64,000 nucleotides of DNA from Chthoniobacter flavus (lineage in GTDB: Bacteria > Verrucomicrobiota > Verrucomicrobiia > Chthoniobacterales > JACTMZ01), in assembly GCA_945871065.1 (NCBI GenBank), contig CAMBUL010000001.1, forward strand, positions 41,666 to 105,665. Reading direction: 5' to 3'. The translations under genes and the position numbers were made by a program. Numbering within the stretch: position 1 is the first letter of the stretch; each line of letters opens with the position of its first letter. This document shows positions 17,424 through 42,098 of this stretch, in pieces. Under the pieces are notes generated by a model. It was not told the DNA's origin. It searched no databases and worked only from the letters and a program-made list of their open reading frames with translations.

Positions 17424-17460
17424 AGTTTGCAGTGTTCAGTTTTCAGCATTGAGCAAAGAC
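17424..17460 (+). repeat. Heptad-periodic repeat, copy A (TTTGCAG TGTTCAG TTTTCAG CATTGAG CAAAGAC)
   Basis: Read directly. Ends 14 nt before the mutM ATG. 33/37 identical to copy B. Confidence 0.8.
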
Positions 17461-17474
17461 ATTAGGATACCCGG

Positions 17475-18266
17475 ATGCCGGAACTCGCCGAGGTGGCTTT
17501 TTATTCCAAGAAGTGGGCACCCGGGCTCGGGGATCGTGTCACGGAGGTGATTTGCCGGGAGCGGGCCCGGATTTACCGGACGGCGGTGCCGGCGGAAATC
17601 CGGCGCGGACTGCAAGGGAAGAAGCTCACTGGTATCGAGACCAAGGGGAAGCAAATGCGTTTCGTTTTCGAGGAGGCGAGCCTCGGGCTGCATCTCGGGA
17701 TGACGGGCAAACTTCTGGTCAAAGGCCAAGACCATGAACCCGGGCGTCATGACCATCTGGTCATCCGGCAGACCAAGCGTTCGCTCGTTTTCCGCGATGC
17801 GCGGATGTTCGGGGCTCTCAAATTCGATCCGCGTGAGGAACCTAATTGGTGGGTGAAGCTGCCACCGGAGGTCGTCTCGCGGTCGTTTACCTCCAAGGTG
17901 GTGAGTGCCTATTTGCGCCGGCGCAAGGGAAGTCCGCTCAAGGCGGTCCTGCTCCAGCAAGAGCGGTTTCCGGGGGTGGGCAATTGGATGGCGGATGAAA
18001 TCCTCTGGCGTTGCCATTTCCATCCCGGACGCAGGGCGGGAACATTGAGCGAGGAAGAAGCACAAATTTTCTTCCGGAATACGAAGCAACTTTGCCGCGA
18101 TGCGCTGAAAATCATCGGCCCAAACCACGGACGTCCCCCGTCCTCCTGGCTTTTCCGGCACCGTTGGCGGCGCGGCGGGAAGTGTCCGCGGGACGGAGCG
18201 ACGCTCGAGCGGGCGACGATCGGCGGTCGGACCACGGCCTGGTGTGCGCAGTGCCAGCGGATGTGA
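17475..18266 (+). CDS. mutM: Fpg/Nei-family DNA glycosylase (formamidopyrimidine-DNA glycosylase-like)
   Basis: N-terminal 'MPELAEV' (Pro2/Glu3) and C-terminal zinc finger 'CPRDGATLERATIGGRTTAWCAQCQ'. Confidence 0.8.
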   Translation: MPELAEVAFYSKKWAPGLGDRVTEVICRERARIYRTAVPAEIRRGLQGKKLTGIETKGKQMRFVFEEASLGLHLGMTGKLLVKGQDHEPGRHDHLVIRQTKRSLVFRDARMFGALKFDPREEPNWWVKLPPEVVSRSFTSKVVSAYLRRRKGSPLKAVLLQQERFPGVGNWMADEILWRCHFHPGRRAGTLSEEEAQIFFRNTKQLCRDALKIIGPNHGRPPSSWLFRHRWRRGGKCPRDGATLERATIGGRTTAWCAQCQRM

Positions 18267-18283: not shown

Positions 18284-18320
18284 AGTTTGCAGTGTTCGGT
18301 CTTCAGTATTCAGCAAAGAC
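18284..18320 (+). repeat. Heptad-periodic repeat, copy B (TTTGCAG TGTTCGG TCTTCAG TATTCAG CAAAGAC)
   Basis: Read directly. Starts 18 nt after the mutM stop and exactly 860 nt from copy A. Confidence 0.8.
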
Positions 18321-21064: not shown

Positions 21065-21073
21065 GGTGGGAAG

Positions 21074-21115
21074 TGATGAGTGAAAAGTGACGAGTGACGA
21101 GTGACGAGTGGAATG
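21074..21115 (+). repeat. Six tandem heptads TGATGAG TGAAAAG TGACGAG TGACGAG TGACGAG TGGAATG in the pdhB-pdhC spacer
   Basis: Read directly. On the pdh mRNA the tract ends 9 nt upstream of the pdhC AUG. Confidence 0.85.
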
Positions 21116-30953: not shown

Positions 30954-31370
30954 TTAGGCGACCAGTGAATCCGCGCGGATGATTTGCAAGCGCGCGTGGC
31001 GGTCGTTCCAGCCGGTGATTTGACGGTCGGCGGTGATCAAGGGCACGCCGAGGACGAGCGCCGTCGCGACGATGAGGCGGTCGGCGGGGTCGCCGTGGAA
31101 ATCTTGTAAACGACAGCTTTCGAGGCTGATCTCGGGATGGAGCGGTTCGAGGCGGACCGGAGGTTGGAGATTTTCGCGGATCCACCGGTCCACATCGGGC
31201 TTCAATTCGAGGCGGCCTTTGGAGGCCAGCATGGCCACCTCCCAGACGGAAATCGCCGGGACAATCGAGGTGCCGCGGAAATTTCGCAAGGCCCCGAGTT
31301 GCGGGTCACCCGCGGACGCGCGCAGCCAGATGTGCGTGTCGAAAACGGCCGCAGCGGTCTTCTCAAGCAT
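30954..31370 (-). CDS. vapC: PIN-domain toxin (VapC family)
   Basis: 'AVFDTHIW', 'SVWEVAML', 'DPADRLIVATAL' and 'LITADRQI' PIN motifs. ATG 31370 ('MLEKTAAAVFD') chosen. Confidence 0.75.
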   Translation of the reverse strand: MLEKTAAAVFDTHIWLRASAGDPQLGALRNFRGTSIVPAISVWEVAMLASKGRLELKPDVDRWIRENLQPPVRLEPLHPEISLESCRLQDFHGDPADRLIVATALVLGVPLITADRQITGWNDRHARLQIIRADSLVA

Positions 31371-31587
31371 CGGCTTGCCAAGTTTCGCCCGTGGCGAGGG
31401 CATCGTCGTGCAGGGTCATGGTGCCGGACGCCCGTCCGAAAAAAAGGGGCGCGGGTGCCTTCTCGACCGCGACCAATTCAACGGCCGGTTGTCCGTGACG
31501 ACTGACCACGATGGAGCACTTCTCGCGTTGCACCTTCTCGATCAGGCTGAGGCACTTGGCTTTGAATTGGGTGACGGTCACCTGCAT
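31363..31587 (-). CDS. Phd/YefM-type antitoxin
   Basis: 'MQVTVTQFKAKCLSLIEKVQREKCSIVVSRHGQPAVELV'. 8-nt overlap with the toxin start. Confidence 0.65.
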   Translation of the reverse strand: MQVTVTQFKAKCLSLIEKVQREKCSIVVSRHGQPAVELVAVEKAPAPLFFGRASGTMTLHDDALATGETWQADA

Positions 31588-31590
31588 AAA

Positions 31591-31610
31591 ATGACCATGA
31601 TATGACCATG
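31591..31610. promoter_or_regulatory. Direct repeat ATGACCATG-at-ATGACCATG, 4 nt upstream of the antitoxin start codon
   Basis: Read directly. 11-nt period. Candidate antitoxin operator. Confidence 0.35.
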
Positions 31611-31632: not shown

Positions 31633-31644
31633 GACTAAAACTAG

Positions 31645-31658
31645 TGAACATTTGAACA
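31645..31658. promoter_or_regulatory. Direct repeat TGAACA-tt-TGAACA about 40 nt upstream of the dinB-dnaE2 start
   Basis: Read directly. It contains GAACA half-sites but not a palindromic arrangement. Confidence 0.3.
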
Positions 31659-31696
31659 GTAGTCAGGTTTCGTGCTAAATCTGTGGGGTGAAGCGG

Positions 31697-32860
31697 ATGG
31701 AACAGCGGGCGGCGGTCCATTTGGATGCGGATGCCTTTTTTGTCGGATGCGAGGTGGCGTCCGAGCCCCGCTTGCGCGGGAAGGCGGTTGCGGTGGGGGG
31801 GATGAAGCGGGGGATTATTGCTTCGGCCAGTTATGAGGCGCGCAAGCTGGGGGTTTACACCCCGATGCCGACGGCGCGGGCCTTGAAGATTTGTCCGTAC
31901 CTCATCGTGCTGCCGGGGGATTATGAGAAGTATGAACATTTTTCGCGGCTGATGTTTTCCTTGGTCCACGATTACACACCGGTCGTGGAGGTGGGGTCGA
32001 TCGACGAGGGCTACGGGGATTTGTCGGGGGTGACAAAATGGAGTCCGCGCACGGCGGCGGAGCGCTTGCGGCGCAATATCCGCGAGCATTTGCGTTTGTC
32101 GGTCTCGCAGGGGCTGGGGACGAACAAGCTGATCTCGGCCGTGGCTTCGAAGTTGCGCAAGCCGGATAATTTTCTCGAGGTGCCGGCGGGGACGGAGCGG
32201 GAATTTCTCGCGCCGCTCGAGGTGAAATGGCTGCCGGGGGTGGGGGCGAAGATGGAGGGCATATTCCAAGCGGCGGGTTTGCACCGCATCGCGCAAGTGG
32301 CGGAGACGACGGTGGAGAGTTTGGAATTGATCGCGGGCTCGGGGGCGGGGCGGTTGCGGCAATTTGCCCAGGGCATCGACGAGCGTCCGATCGTGACCGA
32401 GCGTGAAGATGCCCAGTCTTACGGGAAGCAGGAGACGTTCGACGAGGACACGACGGATGAAGAATTTGTGCGGCGCGTGCTGCGCGGGATGGCGGATCAT
32501 TTGATGGCCAAGGTGCGGTCCGACGGGAAGATGACCCGGTGTGTCGAGGTGCGGTTGCGTTACAATGACATGGAGCAAAGCCGGCGGAGCGAGAGCCTCG
32601 AGGAGCCAACGGATTTGGAGACGGACGTTTACGGGGTGATCGATCGGCTGGTGCGGCGGGCCTGGGACCGGCGGGTCAGTTTGCGTTTGGTCGGGTTGAA
32701 ATTGTCGCGGGTTTATGACGGCGGCGGGTGGCGTCAGACGGGGCTGGATTTGCCGGGCACGGGCTATGAGCGGGAGACGCGGCGGGTCTTGGCGCGGGTC
32801 ATGGATGAGGCGCGGGTGAAATACGGCGCCGGGAGTGTGGTCAGGGGGCATCAGATTAAA
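31697..32860 (+). other. dinB: DinB (Pol IV) module of the fused ORF
   Basis: Catalytic Asp/Asp/Glu retained ('DADAFF', 'SIDEGY'). The usual C-terminal tail '...VKYGAGSVVRG' ends here. Confidence 0.8.
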
Positions 32861-35800
32861 AGTGTTCAGTGTTCCGTTGGCCGTGTTCAGAAAGAGGCTG
32901 GGACGAGCGGCTCGCTTATCCGTGCGGTGAAGAGCGGACACGTGGGCCGCGTGTCCCTTCCTGCCCTAAATGTGAAAAGTTGCTTTAGCTTTATGGATTC
33001 GTTGCTCCGGCCGGGGGACATTGTGCGGATGGCGGGGGAGCGGGGGATGAAGGCGGTGGCGATGACCGATCCGAATTTGCACGGGGCGGTGGAGTTTTGT
33101 GCCGCGGCGAAGGAAGCGGGGATCCAGCCGATCGTGGGGGCGGAGGTGAAGGTGGGGGGGATGAGGTATTTGGCCTATGTCGAGAATGCCGCGGGTTACC
33201 GGCATTTGTGCGGTCTGCTCAGTGGGACGAATAAGGATGTGCTGGAGGGATTGATCCTGCGGCCGGTCACGGCGTTTCCGGAGGTGCGGTATGCGGCGAC
33301 GCGGGAGGCGAAATTTTATGAGGTCGTGCAGAGTATCCGGACTTTGTCCTTGGCGGGGCAGATGCAGGGGGGAAAGCGGCGGGGGGATTTTTCGTGGGGG
33401 CGGGAGATGAAGGCGTCGCCGGGGATGATGCGAGATGCGGAGGAGATGGCCGAACGGTGCGAGTTTGTCTTGCCGATCGGCGGATTGAAGTTTCCGCGGT
33501 TTGCCCCGCCGGATGGATCTTTGCCGCGGGAGTTTTTAGCTCGGTTGGCCCGCGAGGGAATGAAGTGGCGTTACGGGGCGGCGCCGTCCGACGGGGTGCG
33601 GCGTCAGGTGGAAGAGGAATTGCGCATCATCGGCGAGGTGGGCTATGAGGAATATTTTCTGGTCGTCTGGGATTTGCTCCAGCTTTGCCGGGAGCGCGGG
33701 ATTGAATGGATCACGCGGGGCAGCGCGGCGGATTCGCTGGTCTGTTATTGCCTTGGGATCAGCACGGTGTGTCCGGTGCGGTTTGAATTGTATTTCCGGC
33801 GCTTTCTCAATCCGGAACGGATGAAGCTGCAGAAGTTGCCGGATATCGACCTTGATTTTCCCCATGACCGGCGGGACGAGGTGGTGGATATTATCTTTGC
33901 CCGATACGGGCCTCACCATGCGGCCGTGGTGGGGGGATTCAACACGTACCAAGGTCGTTCCGCTTTTGCCGATATCGCCAAAGCGCTGGGGGTTTCCGAA
34001 CTCCAGATCCGGCGCATGACGGAAAAATTGCCGCACACTTCGGCTCATGATGTGGCCGAGGTGGCACGGGACGGGGTGGAATCGGGTGGTTTGGGGTGGG
34101 AGGAGAATCCTTACCGGGCGGCGCTAAAGTTGGCGGCGCGGCTCGACGGGTTCCCGCGGCATGCCAAGATGCATCCCTGCGGTGTGGTTATTTCACGCGA
34201 ACCGGTGGGGGAATTGACACCGTTGTTCACCAGCGCAAGCGGGCGATTGACCACGCAATTCGAGATGGAAGCGGTCGAGGCGATGGGGTTGGTCAAGCTC
34301 GATATTCTTGCGCAGGGCGGGCTTTCTGTGCTTCGCGACGCGCGTGCGGCATTACGCGCCCGCGGATTCGATCCGCCGGAGCCCGGGGCATGGGATGATC
34401 CGCAGGTGTGGCGGATGATTGCCGAGGGCGAGGCCCGCGGGGCGCATCATATCGAGAGTCCGGCTATGACATCTTTGGCCCGGAGGTCCGGGGTCCGGGC
34501 CATCGACCAGTTGATCGCTATTGTCTCAGTCATCCGTCCGGGCGCGGCTAACAGCCTGCGCAAGGAACAGTTCGCGCGGCGCGCGCGCGGCGAGGAGCCG
34601 GTGACCTATATCCATCCGAGCTTGGAACAGGTCTTGCGTTCGACCTATGGCGTGGTCGCTTACGAAGAGCATGTGCTGCAAATTTGCGAGGTGTTCGCCG
34701 GATGGGATGCGGGGCGGGCGGACCAATTGCGGCGCTTGCTGGTGAAAAACCGGATGGCGCAGGTGGATTCGTGGCGCGAAGAATTCGCCGCGGCCGCGCG
34801 GGTTGCTGGGCGCGCGGAAGACGAGATTGCGGACGTGTGGGACTTGCTCATGAAGTTCCGCGGGTATGCCTTTTGCCGGGCTCATTCGACCGCTTACGGT
34901 TTGGAGGCTTACGAAGCGGCGCAGTTGAAACGGTATTGGCCGGCGGAATTTCTGGCCTCCGTGCTGACCCACGGGAAGGGATTTTACTCCCGGTTGTTTT
35001 ATACGATCGAGGCGCGGCGGCTGGGGGTTTTGTTCGGGAGGCCGGATATCAACGGGGAGACAACGAAGTTTTCCGTTGGCCGTGTTCGGTGTCCAGTGAG
35101 CCGGAGAAAAACTGCCGAAGGCGCGGCGGGTGGGAGAATTCAAGTGCCATTGGGTATGATCAAGGGATTGTCGGAAGGATTGTTGCGGAGAATCGGGGAA
35201 AGACGGCCCTTTGTTTCATTGGCGGATTTTTGGCGGCGTTGCGCGCCGCAGGCGGATGAAGCGTCGGCTTTATTGAGGGTGGGGGCGTTTGACGCGTTCG
35301 GGCCATCGCGCACGGAGATGTTTTGGGAATTGCGTGCCTTGGCGCCCTGCGTGACGGGACAAGGTCTGCTTTTGGAGGCGCGGGGTGCGGTGTTGCCGGA
35401 CTGCAGGACGGAGCCGGGACGGCTGGAAAAGTTGCGCGATGAAATGGAACTGCTTGGCTTTCCGGTCAATGGACATCCGGTGGAGCTTTGGCCGGAGGTG
35501 GGATGGGAGACCTATTGTCCGGTCGGCGAGGTGCGGAAGTTTGCGGGTCAACGGGTCACGACGTGCGGGTTGGTTGTGGCGCAGCGGTTGCACCGTCAGT
35601 CGGACGGGCGCACCATGAAATTCATCAGCATTTGCGACCGCACCGATATCATCGAGTGCGAGATTTTCGCGGAGGTTTACCGCCGCTGCGGCGGCGTGCT
35701 GGCCCGGTGGCCGGTGGTCGAGGTGACGGGGAAGGTGGAGACCCCGGGCGGACGCGGTGGCGTGCTGCGGGTGGAGGAAGTGCGGCGGGCGCGGGAGCTT

Positions 35801-35866
35801 ACGAAGCCGGACGTTCGTCGTAGGGCATCTCGGCCAGCTGGAATTTCGGCACCGATTGGCGGATGA
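31697..35866 (+). CDS. Single ORF encoding a Pol IV (DinB)-like Y-family polymerase fused to a DnaE2/ImuC-type C-family polymerase
   Basis: 1,392 codons with no stop from GTG 31688 (ATG 31697 is an alternative start). N-terminal module has 'HLDADAFF...SIDEGYGDLSG'. From 'LPALNVKSCFSFMDSLLRPGDIVRMAGERGMKAVAMTDPNLHGAVEF' onward it is DnaE-like (PHP, palm/fingers 'LPDIDLDFPHDRRDEVV', HhH 'GMIKGLSEG', OB). Confidence 0.8.
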   Translation: MEQRAAVHLDADAFFVGCEVASEPRLRGKAVAVGGMKRGIIASASYEARKLGVYTPMPTARALKICPYLIVLPGDYEKYEHFSRLMFSLVHDYTPVVEVGSIDEGYGDLSGVTKWSPRTAAERLRRNIREHLRLSVSQGLGTNKLISAVASKLRKPDNFLEVPAGTEREFLAPLEVKWLPGVGAKMEGIFQAAGLHRIAQVAETTVESLELIAGSGAGRLRQFAQGIDERPIVTEREDAQSYGKQETFDEDTTDEEFVRRVLRGMADHLMAKVRSDGKMTRCVEVRLRYNDMEQSRRSESLEEPTDLETDVYGVIDRLVRRAWDRRVSLRLVGLKLSRVYDGGGWRQTGLDLPGTGYERETRRVLARVMDEARVKYGAGSVVRGHQIKSVQCSVGRVQKEAGTSGSLIRAVKSGHVGRVSLPALNVKSCFSFMDSLLRPGDIVRMAGERGMKAVAMTDPNLHGAVEFCAAAKEAGIQPIVGAEVKVGGMRYLAYVENAAGYRHLCGLLSGTNKDVLEGLILRPVTAFPEVRYAATREAKFYEVVQSIRTLSLAGQMQGGKRRGDFSWGREMKASPGMMRDAEEMAERCEFVLPIGGLKFPRFAPPDGSLPREFLARLAREGMKWRYGAAPSDGVRRQVEEELRIIGEVGYEEYFLVVWDLLQLCRERGIEWITRGSAADSLVCYCLGISTVCPVRFELYFRRFLNPERMKLQKLPDIDLDFPHDRRDEVVDIIFARYGPHHAAVVGGFNTYQGRSAFADIAKALGVSELQIRRMTEKLPHTSAHDVAEVARDGVESGGLGWEENPYRAALKLAARLDGFPRHAKMHPCGVVISREPVGELTPLFTSASGRLTTQFEMEAVEAMGLVKLDILAQGGLSVLRDARAALRARGFDPPEPGAWDDPQVWRMIAEGEARGAHHIESPAMTSLARRSGVRAIDQLIAIVSVIRPGAANSLRKEQFARRARGEEPVTYIHPSLEQVLRSTYGVVAYEEHVLQICEVFAGWDAGRADQLRRLLVKNRMAQVDSWREEFAAAARVAGRAEDEIADVWDLLMKFRGYAFCRAHSTAYGLEAYEAAQLKRYWPAEFLASVLTHGKGFYSRLFYTIEARRLGVLFGRPDINGETTKFSVGRVRCPVSRRKTAEGAAGGRIQVPLGMIKGLSEGLLRRIGERRPFVSLADFWRRCAPQADEASALLRVGAFDAFGPSRTEMFWELRALAPCVTGQGLLLEARGAVLPDCRTEPGRLEKLRDEMELLGFPVNGHPVELWPEVGWETYCPVGEVRKFAGQRVTTCGLVVAQRLHRQSDGRTMKFISICDRTDIIECEIFAEVYRRCGGVLARWPVVEVTGKVETPGGRGGVLRVEEVRRARELTKPDVRRRASRPAGISAPIGG
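32863..32897 (+). repeat. Heptad-periodic repeat, copy C (TGTTCAG TGTTCCG TTGGCCG TGTTCAG AAAGAGG), in frame at the DinB/DnaE2 junction
   Basis: Read directly. Translated as 'VQCSVGRVQKE'. Confidence 0.8.
32927..35866 (+). other. dnaE2: DnaE2/ImuC module of the fused ORF (in-frame GTG codons at 32927, 32942 and 32951 could act as internal starts)
   Basis: Degenerate PHP N-terminus with C-family polymerase motifs through the OB-fold. About 970 aa. Confidence 0.75.
35069..35110 (+). repeat. Heptad-periodic repeat, copy D (TTTTCCG TTGGCCG TGTTCGG TGTCCAG TGAGCCG GAGAAAA), in frame inside the DnaE2 module
   Basis: Read directly. 35069-35089 is 19/21 identical to 32870-32890. Translated as 'FSVGRVRCPVSRRK'. 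Confidence 0.8.
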
Positions 35867-36518
35867 AATCCTTGAGCATATCGAGAGTCTGCTGGTCGGT
35901 CTTGGCCCCGGGCCGGAGTCCTTCGAGCACGGGAGCGCTGACGATCACGTAGGCCCAGCGATGCTGGAGTTTTTTCACCACCATGTCCCAATTGGTCTTG
36001 GCCAAGCGAACCCAGTGGTGAGGGGTGGAGGTGTCTTTGCCGACGAACCAGTAAAGGAAGTAACTCTTCAGATTGACCCTCTGACCGGGGCCGGTTTCGA
36101 TTTCGCGGTTGAGGGTGAGTTTCATCACGTCGAGCGTGCGGCCGTTGGCCAGGGTGATAGGAACCACTTCGCCCGCTTGGACCGACCAGCCTTGCCCCGG
36201 GAGACAGACCTCGGGGCGGTGGATACTGCGCTTTTCGCCACCGCTGAGCACGACTTGGGCGGTGAGGGAATTGCCGGTGAGGTCCTGGTAAATTTTTTTC
36301 TCGAACTCGGTGTCACCGGGCAGGAGAGCCAACTCGCTCGGCGAAATCGGCTCGCTCGTGCCCCAATACTCGCCGACCAAGGTGGGAAGATCCATGATGA
36401 CCCCGGATTCGGGCGAGATGTTGGGTGGCGCGCTTTCGCGGCACAGCCAGATGGTGAGAGCGGCCAGCGCGATCACCGTACCGGAGCGCCACCAAGGGAT
36501 ATCGATGGCGCGGATCAT
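35799..36518 (-). CDS. epsI: Exosortase-associated EpsI family protein
   Basis: N-terminal TM, then 'MDLPTLVGEYWG...HRPEVCLPGQGW...YFLYWFVG' typical of EpsI. ATG 36518 overlaps the exosortase stop (ATGA). Confidence 0.8.
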   Translation of the reverse strand: MIRAIDIPWWRSGTVIALAALTIWLCRESAPPNISPESGVIMDLPTLVGEYWGTSEPISPSELALLPGDTEFEKKIYQDLTGNSLTAQVVLSGGEKRSIHRPEVCLPGQGWSVQAGEVVPITLANGRTLDVMKLTLNREIETGPGQRVNLKSYFLYWFVGKDTSTPHHWVRLAKTNWDMVVKKLQHRWAYVIVSAPVLEGLRPGAKTDQQTLDMLKDFIRQSVPKFQLAEMPYDERPAS

Positions 36519-37486
36519 GGGGTTGGTGCGGTAGGCGGTTGGGGAGCGAAGCGTTGCAGCAACCATCCCACCCCGAGCATGCCGCCGAGCGCGACGGCGA
36601 AGACGAGGAATCCGGAAAGCATGTGGAAAGTGGTCGGTTCCTCCAGCGTACCAATGGCGGTTTCGGGTCCGAGCGCGATGGTGCCGATGGTCAGCATGAT
36701 GATGCGGGCAAAGTTGCCGGCCACGGCAAGGGGAACCGAGGCAAGAAAGACGGCCCATTTTTGCCACGATCTATCCATGGCGATGAATCCGTAGAGGGCA
36801 CTGACCATCATGAGGGCGAAGAGCGAACGGATGCCGCTGCAAGGATCAGCCACGTCGACCGCGAAGCGTTCACCGGCCGCGAGGCCTGCGGCGAAGTCGG
36901 GCGTCGAGACAATGGCAGTGCCCTGTTGCAGGCAGGGCAGACCAATCAGATTGAGGAAACCGACACTGACCGTGGACATGAAAATGCGCAGGGGGAAGGC
37001 GAGAAAGTTGTCCATGAACGGCAAAGGAAACATGAACGCCAGGAATGCGATGGGGAAGGAAATCGCCTTGAGCCATTGCCATCCGAGGAACCAAAGGACG
37101 AGTGAACCGATAAACCCGAGCATGGCGGCATAACCGACGTAAATATTGTCCGCCAAATAGCCGACCCAATAGACAAAGAGAGTTCCGAGCAGAGCAGCCA
37201 AGCCGAGCCACGAACCTCTGACCGGAAGCGCGGCGAGTGCTTTGCGGCGGTAAATGACGAGTCCGAGGGCGAAGAGGGGTACCAGCCAGCAGTGTTCCCA
37301 TTCGGGGTTGTTTTTCCAAATCCAGCCCATGAACTCGAACATGCCGACCCGCGTGGCCCCGTAGCCCGAGGCGTAGGGGAACCAGAAAAAGAGGGCGTAG
37401 AAAATACCGGCCGCGGTGAGAGCCGCAAAAATGTTCGGCGCGGCCAGGGAGGCTCGCCAGTCAGGGGCCACAGCGGTGGAGTTCAT
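36515..37486 (-). CDS. Exosortase (EpsH/Xrt family transpeptidase)
   Basis: Polytopic membrane protein with 'DPCSGIRS' (Cys), 'AGNFARI' (Arg) and 'FHMLSG' (His). ATG 37486 ('MNSTAVAPDW') chosen. Confidence 0.85.
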   Translation of the reverse strand: MNSTAVAPDWRASLAAPNIFAALTAAGIFYALFFWFPYASGYGATRVGMFEFMGWIWKNNPEWEHCWLVPLFALGLVIYRRKALAALPVRGSWLGLAALLGTLFVYWVGYLADNIYVGYAAMLGFIGSLVLWFLGWQWLKAISFPIAFLAFMFPLPFMDNFLAFPLRIFMSTVSVGFLNLIGLPCLQQGTAIVSTPDFAAGLAAGERFAVDVADPCSGIRSLFALMMVSALYGFIAMDRSWQKWAVFLASVPLAVAGNFARIIMLTIGTIALGPETAIGTLEEPTTFHMLSGFLVFAVALGGMLGVGWLLQRFAPQPPTAPTP

Positions 37487-40209: not shown

Positions 40210-42098
40210 GATGTGCCGTTCGCACCGATGCGACGGAAGATTTCTTCATACCGGTCGAGCACGGACTCCCACCGGAATTGTTCCGCACGGTGGCGGGCGC
40301 GTCGCCCCACCGCCGCACAGTCTTCCGGATGGTCCGCGGCCCAAACGAGTTTCTCGGCCAGCGCTTCGACCGGATGGTCCGGACCGAAAGGGATACCGGC
40401 ATCACCGACCACTTCGCGTGTCGCCGTGCAGTCGTGGTACATGATCGCCTTGCCCATGCCGAGCTGGTCGAGCAGAACCAATCGCGTGGCCTCGATGGTG
40501 GCGGGCATGATGAAAGCCCGTGAATGCTGACTCAGCTCGATGTAGGCATCGGAAAACCGCAGCCCGGTAAAAATCACCCGATCGGTGGCCAGAGCCGCCA
40601 GCTTTCGGTGGTAGGCTTGTTCGTAGGGATCACCGCCCACCATGACCAGCGGCAGTGGATCGGCCAACTCGCGGTATGCGCGCAACAGCAATTCCGCCTC
40701 GTTCTCCGGAGTGAGTCGGGAAACATAAAGGAAGTAGTTGTCCGGCCGGAGTCCCCAGCGTTCCAACTCCCCGGAGCGCACGGGCGCATCGCGTATGGTC
40801 AGCCCGTAGGAGAGGTGCTCGGTTCGCGTGGCATGACGGTCCGCATAGCGGTCGGCAATGGTGGCGTTGTCCGCGATGATGCAGTCAGCGGACTGCGTGG
40901 CCCAACGTTCGCTGTGTTTCAACCAGAACCGGGCGAATCCGCGCCACTTTTTACGGCTGAAGTCCGCCCCGTCCACATTGATGATCACCTTGGTGCCGCG
41001 CCATCGGGCGAGGCGACCGAGGATGGCATTGCCCACCCCACAGAGATAGATAATGTCATAGTTCCTGCGCATCGCATCGAGCATCGACAGGGTGGTGTGC
41101 ACGATGGTGTCGAGACTCTTGGTCGGGATGGTCGGTAGTCCGATGATGTGCATGCCCTCCCAGATCGGCTGGGGTGCCCCGTGGTGGGGCAGGCGGTTGT
41201 AGACCGTCACATCATGTCCCCGCGCGGCGAGGCGTTTGCCGAGCTCCTGAACGACGACCTCGAATCCCGAGTAGCGGGCCGGCACGCCGCGGGAACCGAG
41301 AAAGGCGATGCTGGGTTTTCCGGAGCCAGCGGGTTTTGCCTTCGGTCGGCCGCCCAAAGCTTCGCGGATGGTGTAGTAGACAAAGAGCGAATTGAACTGG
41401 GTGTAGCGCCTCCAGAGACGGCCGGGCTCCTGCCAAAGGCGGTAGACCCATGTGGTGCCGGAGCGCTGCATCCAATGTGGTGCGAAAGCCCGCTGTCCAC
41501 CAAGAAGGACAAAGGCATCTCCCACCGCGAAGAAGACCCCGCGGGCGTGGCGCGCCAGGTTGTCGATGATCCATCGCTCCTGCCGCTCGCCGCCGAGGGC
41601 GACCCAGATGAAATCGGGCTTGGCTTCCGCGATGGTCCGGGCGAAGGCCTTTTCGTCGTCCTCGGTCCACGTCCGGAAGGGCGGCGACAAAGTGCCGGCA
41701 ATTTCGAGGCCGGGTTGGATCTCACCCAAGTGCGCCACGAGGGCCTCGAGTGTTTCCTCCGTTCCGCCGAAGAAAAAATGGCGCCACGGACGCGGGGTGG
41801 CACGGATCATTTTCTCCATGAAATACGGGCCGTAGACGCGGTCCTTGAGGGCGGCTCCGTGTGCGTTGAGGCTCCAGCGCAGCGGCATGCCATCGGGCAG
41901 GATGAGGTCAAACTTCCTCATGACGTCGCCGAAATCGCGTTGGTGGCGGGCCAACGCGACGATGTGGGTATTGCTGGCCGCCACGGCGGCGGGATGCTGT
42001 TCGCCGGCCAGCCGGATGCTTTCCGCGATGGCCGCATCGTAATCGACCACCGACACCGGAGTTCCGAGGATTGTAATCTTGCGTGGTGCCGTTCTCAT
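40206..42098 (-). CDS. Two-domain glycosyltransferase: WecG/TagA/CpsF (GT26) N-terminal domain fused to a DUF1972/GT4 C-terminal domain
   Basis: 'ITILGTPVSVVDYDAA...LILPDGMPLRW...FIWVALGGERQERW' (GT26), then 'IAFLGSRGVPARYSGFEVVVQELGKRLAARGHDVTVY...' (GT4). ATG 42098 chosen. Confidence 0.75.
   Translation of the reverse strand: MRTAPRKITILGTPVSVVDYDAAIAESIRLAGEQHPAAVAASNTHIVALARHQRDFGDVMRKFDLILPDGMPLRWSLNAHGAALKDRVYGPYFMEKMIRATPRPWRHFFFGGTEETLEALVAHLGEIQPGLEIAGTLSPPFRTWTEDDEKAFARTIAEAKPDFIWVALGGERQERWIIDNLARHARGVFFAVGDAFVLLGGQRAFAPHWMQRSGTTWVYRLWQEPGRLWRRYTQFNSLFVYYTIREALGGRPKAKPAGSGKPSIAFLGSRGVPARYSGFEVVVQELGKRLAARGHDVTVYNRLPHHGAPQPIWEGMHIIGLPTIPTKSLDTIVHTTLSMLDAMRRNYDIIYLCGVGNAILGRLARWRGTKVIINVDGADFSRKKWRGFARFWLKHSERWATQSADCIIADNATIADRYADRHATRTEHLSYGLTIRDAPVRSGELERWGLRPDNYFLYVSRLTPENEAELLLRAYRELADPLPLVMVGGDPYEQAYHRKLAALATDRVIFTGLRFSDAYIELSQHSRAFIMPATIEATRLVLLDQLGMGKAIMYHDCTATREVVGDAGIPFGPDHPVEALAEKLVWAADHPEDCAAVGRRARHRAEQFRWESVLDRYEEIFRRIGANGTS

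Follow-up and report, generated by a model that had tools for sequence, protein, structure and literature searches.

The 64,000-nucleotide stretch of the Chthoniobacter flavus contig CAMBUL010000001.1 that was analyzed here (positions 41,666 to 105,665), and to which we refer in its entirety as the window, contains a gene in which a Pol IV-like Y-family polymerase is fused to a C-family polymerase module of the DnaE type (Table 1). Two short arrays of 7-nt units (heptads) lie within this open reading frame (ORF), one in the linker between the two modules and the other in a hairpin loop preceding the helix-hairpin-helix (HhH) motif of the C-family module. The initial annotation of this DNA had interpreted the loop copy as a non-coding repeat element that was inserted, or had expanded, in a tolerant surface loop without breaking the frame, and this interpretation is supported by the DNA of relatives, by alignment to polymerases of known structure and by a scan for the repeat class in other genomes. 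The loop segment is therefore likely to represent a degenerate, translated passenger repeat residing in a permissive loop and belonging to a mostly intergenic class of heptad arrays.

Table 1. Positions within the window of the polymerase gene, its coding arrays and related sequences.
Feature	Position	Strand	Remarks
Intergenic array AGTTTGC AGTGTTC AGTTTTC AGCATTG AGCAAAGAC	17424-17460	+	ends 14 nt before the ATG of an fpg-like gene
Second intergenic array	18284-18320	+	89% identical to 17424-17460; between the stop codon of the fpg-like gene and the ATG of the next ORF (18343)
Operator-like sequence TA(C/G)TGAACATTTGAACAGTA	31642-31661		about 27 nt upstream of the polymerase start
Polymerase gene (ORF)	31688-35866	+	1392 amino acids; fusion of Pol IV-like Y-family and DnaE-type C-family polymerases
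Linker array AGTGTTC AGTGTTC CGTTGGC CGTGTTC (32861-32888) with tail AGAAAGAGG	32861-32897	+	translated SVQCSVGRVQKE; between the Y-family and C-family modules
Whole variable hairpin loop, residues 1123-1150	35054-35137	+	between PDIN and IQVPLGMIKGLS (HhH)
Loop array, degenerate heptads AGTTTTC CGTTGGC CGTGTTC GGTGTCC AGTGAGC	35067-35101	+	translated (K)FSVGRVRCPVS
Purine-rich rest of the lineage-specific loop, CGGAGAAAAACTGCCGAAGGCGCGGCGGGTGGGAGA	35102-35137	+	encodes RRKTAEGAAGGR; related to the 'EKRKTAE...' module of relatives' loops

The resemblance between the two coding arrays proved to be exactly as first described, since 35069-35089 (TTTTCCGTTGGCCGTGTTCGG) and 32870-32890 (TGTTCCGTTGGCCGTGTTCAG) are identical at 19 of 21 positions and share the exact 17-mer TTCCGTTGGCCGTGTTC, which begins at 32872 and 35071 on the plus strand in both cases. 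A distance of 2199 nt (733 codons) separates the copies, which are read in the same frame of one ORF, within CSVGRVQ and FSVGRVR, respectively, so that both 17-mers encode S-V-G-R-V. Likewise, the loop translation KFSVGRVRCPVSRRKTAEGAAGG between RPDING and GMIKGLSEG was correct, and the two additional heptads reported downstream of 35069-35089 are real, with one further heptad also preceding this segment. A third copy of the 17-mer was not present in the window at up to 3 mismatches. All five units of the loop array differ from one another, and both arrays carry the unit pair xGTTGGC-xGTGTTC. The first loop heptad overlaps a native K-F-x-V strand, at which short-loop relatives read R/E-F-V/A-A, and part of the loop array may thus consist of native codons. 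Three additional, independent metagenome assemblies of this lineage (L003, L249 and L250) contain the same loop array with 0-2 nt changes, and it is therefore not an assembly artefact; in all four haplotypes, whose proteins are 96-99% identical, it comprises five units, is in frame and varies by single substitutions only.

The host protein retains all of its Pfam domains despite the insert. Residues 12-351 correspond to the Pol IV-like Y-family polymerase (IMS, IMS_C), which keeps the catalytic-looking motifs HLDADAFF and SIDEGY, and the C-family module extends from approximately residue 427 through PHP, pol3_alpha, fingers, HHH_6 and OB domains. A protein search identified more than 100 full-length homologs of the same fused architecture with 52-99% identity, two of which bear NCBI names from Chthoniobacterales metagenome-assembled genomes (MAGs); a 2026 survey of bacterial polymerases does not mention a fusion of Y-family and C-family polymerases. 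When compared to curated models, the C-family module remained below the cut-offs for error-prone DNA polymerase (NF004225; 480 bits versus 939) and DnaE (NF004226; 542 bits versus 1002), and passed only the superfamily model TIGR00594 (486 versus 434). Judged by these profiles, it is best named a DnaE-type C-family module, the label 'DnaE2' of the initial annotation not being established; a DnaE2-like role may be suggested by the fusion to a Pol IV-like module and by the SOS-box-like operator upstream of the gene.

Within the window and the syntenic loci of relatives (235 kb), the heptad arrays located outside the polymerase gene are intergenic. The loop array aligns in register with both intergenic arrays of the window, with the linker array and with an intergenic array of a relative (L008:47-67), which places it in the same family. 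The two intergenic members of the window are 37-nt elements, composed of heptads and the AGCAAAGAC tail, that flank the fpg-like gene (17475-18266) as direct repeats and end 14-22 nt before start codons. A further tandem array, (AGTGACG)5.6, is found at 21072-21110 in a minus-strand operon for a 2-oxoacid dehydrogenase, where it separates the E1-beta gene from the E2 gene and ends 7 nt ahead of the E2 start codon (ATG); its unit has the same AGTG start and no C at position 7. In the polymerase gene the repeats occupy three recurrent sites, namely the linker, residues ~512-522 and the pre-HhH hairpin.

As proposed in the initial annotation, the loop was compared among homologous proteins, and an alignment of 112 full-length fused homologs, complemented by the DNA of eleven relatives, revealed that the extra residues are lineage-specific, variable and devoid of a conserved motif. 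Distant fused homologs (52-58% identity) mostly possess a hairpin of ~10 residues, for example PDVN-RS-RDHFFPEGNA-IRVPL, and some distant lineages have acquired independent insertions at the same hairpin site. The stretch between PDxN and IRVPL..KGLS in the close Chthoniobacterales clade (73-99% identity) ranges from 12 to more than 50 residues and is built of recurring peptide words (KFSVFSVQCSAG or KFSVGSVQCSESRR, EKRKTAENAKSTE, ADGWASRPYRGGE and GIGILPMMMGGHRQDADAT); several close members have short loops as well (P0034, P0039, P0046-49, P0051, P0052 and P0054). SVGRV is restricted to the lineage of the window, and SVQCSVF is the cyclic translation of (AGTGTTC)3. The loop array of L251 is near-consensus (AAAAGTTTTC AGTTGGC AGTGTTC AGTGTTC AGAAAG), and its flanks, AAAAGT on the 5' side and AGAAAG on the 3' side, are those of the linker and intergenic copies of the window. 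In L001 and L006 four heptads are followed by a long palindrome (GGCATCGGCATCCTGCCGATG ... CATCGGCAGGATGCCGATGCC), and in L007 a 13-residue loop lacks heptads, yet a linker array is present. Every loop variant of the relatives is in frame.

Other short repeats were observed in the same gene. The palindrome just mentioned resembles repetitive extragenic palindromic (REP) sequences and is translated in frame as GIGILPMM..HRQDADAT in the hairpins of three relatives (L001:5092-5147, L004:13568-13623 and L006:13460-13511); a half-copy (EHRQDADAT) is located at the third hot spot, which corresponds to residues ~512-522 of the window protein (L001:3160-3178 and L006:11543-11561). This palindrome (CATCGGCAGGATGCCGATG) was absent outside the polymerase gene in the 235 kb searched, all 6 copies being inside. 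Moreover, a GC-rich element, GGCC[A/T][G/A]GGCC[T/C]GTCTCGCCAAGCCTCGGC, is nested in frame within the loop heptads of two relatives (L005:4585-4615 and L002:13393-13423) and thus represents one insertion inside another; its translation is GQGLSRQAS or AKARLAKPR.

The linker array is kept as an array in 8 of 9 linkers of relatives, including that of L007. Since distant homologs are fused but have no heptads in their linkers, the linker copy probably arose by insertion into an already fused gene, and by such sequence comparison both copies probably represent insertions into an existing ORF, the linker copy not being a fossil intergenic spacer. The loop copy of the window is orthologous to, although diverged from, those of its sister group (P0005-8). 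In a neighbour-joining tree built from core columns, heptad-type loops were scattered over the close clade and interleaved with short loops and other modules, which indicates a high turnover by loss, gain or recombination.

The position of the insert was also mapped onto known polymerase structures. Sequence alignment with the Pol III alpha subunits of Taq (2hpi/3e0d; PDVNRSGFDFKVV|GEEILFGLSAVKNVGE) and E. coli (5fku; PDINSGLYHFHVND|DGEIVYGIGAIKGVGEG) placed an insertion of 15-16 residues at the tip of the hairpin before the HhH motif, in agreement with the tolerant surface loop initially suggested. An AlphaFold2 model of residues 420-1392, computed from 42 homologs without DNA or partner proteins (mean predicted local distance difference test score, pLDDT, of 84.8), contains strands at residues 1129-1131 and 1150-1152 on either side of the insert. 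Averaged over ten-residue blocks, pLDDT fell from 93 ahead of the insert to 59 and 52 inside it and rose again to 95 beyond it, with values below 50 for residues 1135-1145 (CPVSRRKTAEG). According to this model, the insert is probably a disordered protrusion from the surface between confidently predicted strands. Constraint on the segment is relaxed. A comparison of the window with L001 gave 0.57 nonsynonymous changes per codon in the loop and 0.40 in the linker, compared to 0.05-0.14 in the folded modules, so that the loop evolves approximately 5 times faster than the domains. The RNA of the insert folds no better than shuffled sequences (z = -0.66), and one tRNA was the sole Rfam match in the window.

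The repeat class extends far beyond this gene. The initial annotation had advised a genome-wide scan for the 17-mer; when metagenome contigs were searched, there were at least 120 matches. Those listed were all single and in unrelated contexts, for example a conserved coding sequence, and none came from the polymerase; in so large a collection, a sequence as short as the 17-mer was uninformative. Searching one genome per species for the heptad pattern CAGTGTTCAGTNNNCAGTGTTCAG did reveal a large and mostly intergenic class, with at least 120 matches compared to ~0.3 calculated by chance. The following results refer to the matches listed. They come from Planctomycetota, Verrucomicrobiota (including Chthoniobacter and other Chthoniobacterales), Kiritimatiellae, Lentisphaeria, Chloroflexota, Flavobacteriia and others, and comprise arrays of 3-35 AGTNNNC units (L009-L128), namely AGTGTTC, AGTTTTC, AGTATTC, AGTAATC, AGTGGTC, AGTTGGC and AGTTATC. 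A reverse-complement array often follows within a few dozen bases, giving rise to hairpins with heptad arms. Unit types were also seen to switch in blocks inside an array, for example five AGTGGTC followed by four AGTGTTC. When ORFs were called crudely, 117 of the 128 arrays in other genomes were intergenic, lying in leaders and trailers in both orientations, and 12 arrays are located in long stop-free spans, all of them in the sense orientation. In this orientation AGTGTTC reads S-V-Q-C-S-V-F without stops, whereas its reverse complement GAACACT produces TGA in every frame within 21 nt; the two intragenic copies of the window share the same orientation because only this one is open in all frames. 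One of the stop-free spans encodes a class I tRNA ligase resembling leucyl-tRNA synthetase (LeuRS) in a Limisphaerales MAG (WRPG01000029.1; L012:543-600), with an in-frame array and an inverted array (SNQCSVNSVQTENWKLNTEN). The LeuRS-like array lies between two conserved segments, the first of them YW, and one TGA of the inverted arm is apparently avoided by TGG. Pfam searches of five other long stop-free spans with arrays found no domains; these spans are probably not genes, and only the LeuRS-like case held up. A literature search for AGTGTTC arrays by literal sequence returned only an unrelated earthworm microsatellite paper.

The surroundings of the polymerase gene contain additional conserved and variable features. 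The operator-like sequence upstream of its start has a 16-nt core, CTGAACATTTGAACAG, that is identical in most of twelve loci while the flanks diverge; the core of L002 ends in ...CAGC, and the window and L003 have TAGTG instead of TACTG on the left arm (G for C). It holds a TGAACA-N2-TGAACA direct repeat and fits CTG-N10-CAG, the E. coli-type SOS box, and no second site of this kind was found in the window. A possible LexA site, the Verrucomicrobia LexA motif TGTTC-N4-GAACA, was also considered and rejected, since this motif is no more frequent in the window than expected by chance and is not formed by the arrays. Directly upstream and divergent lies a PIN/PhdYeFM-type toxin-antitoxin pair (30954-31600, minus strand) that varies among relatives and is absent, for example, in L002, L005-L007 and L249-L251. 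At its 3' end the polymerase ORF shares 68 nt (35799-35866) with a convergent EpsI/DUF3485 gene on the minus strand (35799-36767), an overlap kept in all loci, and the polymerase tail (residues 1366-1392) differs by 1 nt between the window and L001, compared to 12-16% in the rest of the gene. The 96% identical homolog P0004 (L003:5141-9220) is without 30 residues in the PHP/early C-family region and gives no Pfam match for PHP, which may reflect either a natural deletion variant or an assembly problem.

Taken together, these data suggest a scenario in which the source was a short dispersed element of tandem AGTNNNC units (consensus AGTGTTC) that normally resides between genes, and in which one copy became embedded in coding sequence at the tip of the beta-hairpin before the HhH motif of the C-family module. 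This might have occurred by insertion, possibly guided by microhomology, or by local expansion seeded on native AAG-TTY-xxx-GTG codons. Such a copy could persist for three reasons: no stop codon occurs in any frame in the present orientation, the net change in length would be a multiple of three, and a solvent-exposed hairpin tip would tolerate extra residues. The element would then be transcribed and translated as ~15 additional, probably disordered, residues, and the array would since have decayed by point mutation to five different units on which slippage is presumably no longer possible. The 19/21 identity between linker and loop would reflect common family membership, to which a short gene-conversion patch in the lineage of the window might have added, a possibility that the data do not support. 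The comparisons show directly that the array belongs to the family, is specific to the lineage, keeps the frame, lies at a permissive location and is under relaxed constraint, and the mode of origin and the absence of a function are inferred from them; the loop repeat is real but probably a harmless passenger.

Several observations weigh against this scenario. The first unit falls on the conserved K-F-x-V strand, so that the array may have originated in place from native codons, and neither a target-site duplication nor a transposase or other mobilising function was identified. The family is sparse, with only three intergenic arrays in the 235 kb of window and syntenic loci, so that few copies speak for a dispersed non-coding family in this genome. 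In the same DNA, 10 of 14 heptad arrays and 6 of 6 palindrome copies fall within one gene, an enrichment that a purely passive model does not predict, although the count is inflated by the shared ancestry of the loci and probably reflects 4-5 events. A large, non-essential and linker-rich gene is a natural survivor of repeat hits, but the enrichment is still noticeable. In addition, the scattered distribution of heptad loops requires repeated loss, repeated gain or recombination, and the long retention of the loop could mean that it is useful.

Chance resemblance would reduce the finding to a coincidental 17-mer between unrelated stretches of a GC-rich gene and an ordinary variable loop. Indeed, the 17-mer is the longest dispersed exact repeat of the window, three other dispersed 16-mers are present, and at least one repeated 17-mer occurred in 57% of 60 second-order Markov simulations of the 64-kb window, so that the exact pair by itself, viewed as a blind window-wide event, is not beyond chance. 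As a match to a pre-specified family member, however, the expectation was 0.27 matches at up to 3 mismatches, with two or more in 3 of 100 shuffles, and for the exact 17-mer it was calculated as ~1e-5. Runs of at least four NGTNNNC heptads were found in none of 100 simulated windows, and in the real window only at 18284, 32861 and, with the maximum of 5 units, 35067; as the pattern was derived from the same arrays this test is partly circular, although the units on either side of the 17-mer do not depend on it. With at least three heptads, runs occurred at 17424, 18284, 32861, 35067 and 5290, the latter probably by chance. The significance of the array is therefore based on its heptad periodicity, on the two intergenic family members in the window and on the relatives, rather than on the 17-mer pair. 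Since relatives have clearer AGTGTTC arrays at the same two sites, both copies lie on the same strand in the stop-free orientation and the loop array is in register with intergenic arrays, chance resemblance is largely refuted already by the DNA of relatives, and we give it hardly any credence. A recent intragenic gene conversion or ectopic copy from the linker array, 2.2 kb upstream, could explain why both arrays of the window lineage share a 14-17 nt CGTTGGCCGTGTTC core, and why AGTTTTC in the loop of L001, from the sister group, corresponds to CGTTGGC in the window, three changes that are all towards the linker sequence and produce xGTTGGC, the ancestral third linker unit still seen in L003, L006 and L008. 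However, loop arrays occur across the clade irrespective of the linker sequence, xGTTGGC is also found in the loop of L251, whose linker lacks it, and among the four haplotypes the arrays change independently (in L003, the linker has A..C and the loop C..A). An identity of 17 nt is, moreover, short for RecA-dependent conversion, and we regard this origin as very unlikely.

A different possibility is that the extended loop is adaptive, its basic and flexible residues beside the HhH motif modulating the binding of DNA, clamp or partners, with the repeat as raw material. Its maintenance in most of the close clade, its independent appearance in distant lineages, the frame that is always kept and the adjacency to the HhH motif are in line with such a role. 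Nevertheless, the insert has no conserved peptide, varies from 12 to more than 50 residues with unrelated modules being swapped even among close relatives, is absent from some of these, accumulates nonsynonymous changes at ~5 times the rate of the domains and is predicted by AlphaFold2 to have no structure, which makes an adaptive loop unlikely. Alternatively, the array could act as nucleic acid, as a binding site for a heptad-recognising protein or RNA-binding factor, as an internal translation leader or as a slippage tract for phase variation. Intergenic members are situated just upstream of start codons, as are the TAACTGA repeats for which a post-transcriptional regulator was proposed (PMC4679880), slippage of a 7-nt unit would shift the frame, and the array iterates TGTTCAGT, which is reverse-complementary to a half-site of the conserved operator-like sequence, a match that we treat as coincidence. 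On the other hand, slippage is not expected with five different units, all four haplotypes of the lineage have five in-frame units, many functional-looking relatives lack an array in the loop, the RNA fold and Rfam searches gave no signal (z = -0.66 and no match, as above), and arrays in other genomes are found in leaders and trailers in both orientations. Phase variation in particular was rejected in view of the heterogeneous units and the constant copy number (five in the window, L250, L249 and L003), and a nucleic-acid role in general seems quite improbable. It is, to a similarly small degree, conceivable that the fused translesion polymerase gene is a preferential sink for short repeats and not simply a tolerant host, given that 10/14 arrays, all 6 CATCGGCAGGATGCCGATG palindromes and the nested GC-rich element lie in one gene and that TGTTCAGT is the reverse complement of a half-site of the operator TACTGAACATTTGAACAGTA. 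If this were true, insertion or template switching might be targeted in connection with the expression or activity of the gene, or the arrays might be intragenic sites for the same regulator.

The preferred reading, a passenger repeat that was absorbed into a permissive loop, provides a clean comparative case outside Rickettsia, in abundant free-living soil Verrucomicrobia, of intergenic-type repeats taken up into the coding sequence of an enzyme. It further suggests that the pre-HhH hairpin and the inter-module linker are natural insertion-tolerant sites in DnaE-type polymerases, which would be useful for engineering tags, and that peptide words such as SVQCSVF or HRQDADAT in otherwise conserved proteins should be annotated as translated repeats and not as motifs. 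Both in-frame passenger repeats and heptanucleotide arrays are already known as kinds. In-frame insertions in genes have been described for the Rickettsia palindromic elements (RPEs; Ogata 2000, 2002, as summarized in PMC10969869). RPEs likewise are dispersed repeats that also occur in non-coding DNA, lie in frame in unrelated genes, are translated, are absent from orthologs and occupy fold-compatible sites. In contrast, RPEs are palindromic, ~100-150 bp long, encode family-specific conserved peptides and belong to obligate intracellular Rickettsia, whereas the element described here is not palindromic, is made up of 7-nt tandem units over a length of 35-45 nt and has a free-living soil Verrucomicrobium as its host. 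With an insert of 35-70 nt that is non-palindromic, folds no better than shuffles and has no conserved peptide, it behaves like an RPE without belonging to the RPE family; the 'HRQDADAT' palindromes in the loops of relatives are closer to RPE or REP sequences in form.

The closest published parallel is provided by the TAACTGA direct repeats of Beggiatoaceae, Cyanobacteria and Bacteroidetes, which are mostly intergenic and located just upstream of start codons (MacGregor 2015, PMC4679880). Inside ORFs they were found only in the stop-free orientation and mainly at the protein periphery, with one case inside an RNA polymerase beta'-like ORF (PMC4679880). Both are 7-nt tandem repeats, and the reverse complement of TAACTGA, TCAGTTA, corresponds to the AGTTATC unit present in the arrays found here. 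Both classes are also mostly intergenic, often upstream of starts and spread across phyla, and become intragenic only when stop-free and mostly at tolerant positions. However, the dominant unit here is AGTGTTC or AGTTTTC, the taxa are Verrucomicrobiota, Planctomycetota, Chloroflexota, Flavobacteriia and others, and the loop array is short, degenerate and located in the middle of a folded domain, at a hairpin tip, and not at a protein end. Cyanobacterial short tandemly repeated repetitive (STRR) sequences reportedly consist of the heptamers CCCCAGT and CAACAGT (Mazel et al. 1990). Heptanucleotides are, moreover, the most abundant long simple-sequence repeats (SSRs) in many bacteria (Mrazek et al. 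2007, cited in PMC4679880). Like the arrays described here, STRRs and long SSRs are dispersed tandem heptanucleotides with a CAGT core and are mainly intergenic, but they have been described as non-coding. To our knowledge, no translated copy of an STRR-type heptamer in a polymerase has been described. Phase-variable SSRs of contingency loci share a unit that is not a multiple of three inside coding sequence; they need long homogeneous tracts that vary between strains, in contrast to the different units and the copy number fixed at five in the loop. AGTNNNC arrays, which are common to many phyla and often form hairpins with heptad arms, thus extend the published observations on TAACTGA and STRR repeats.

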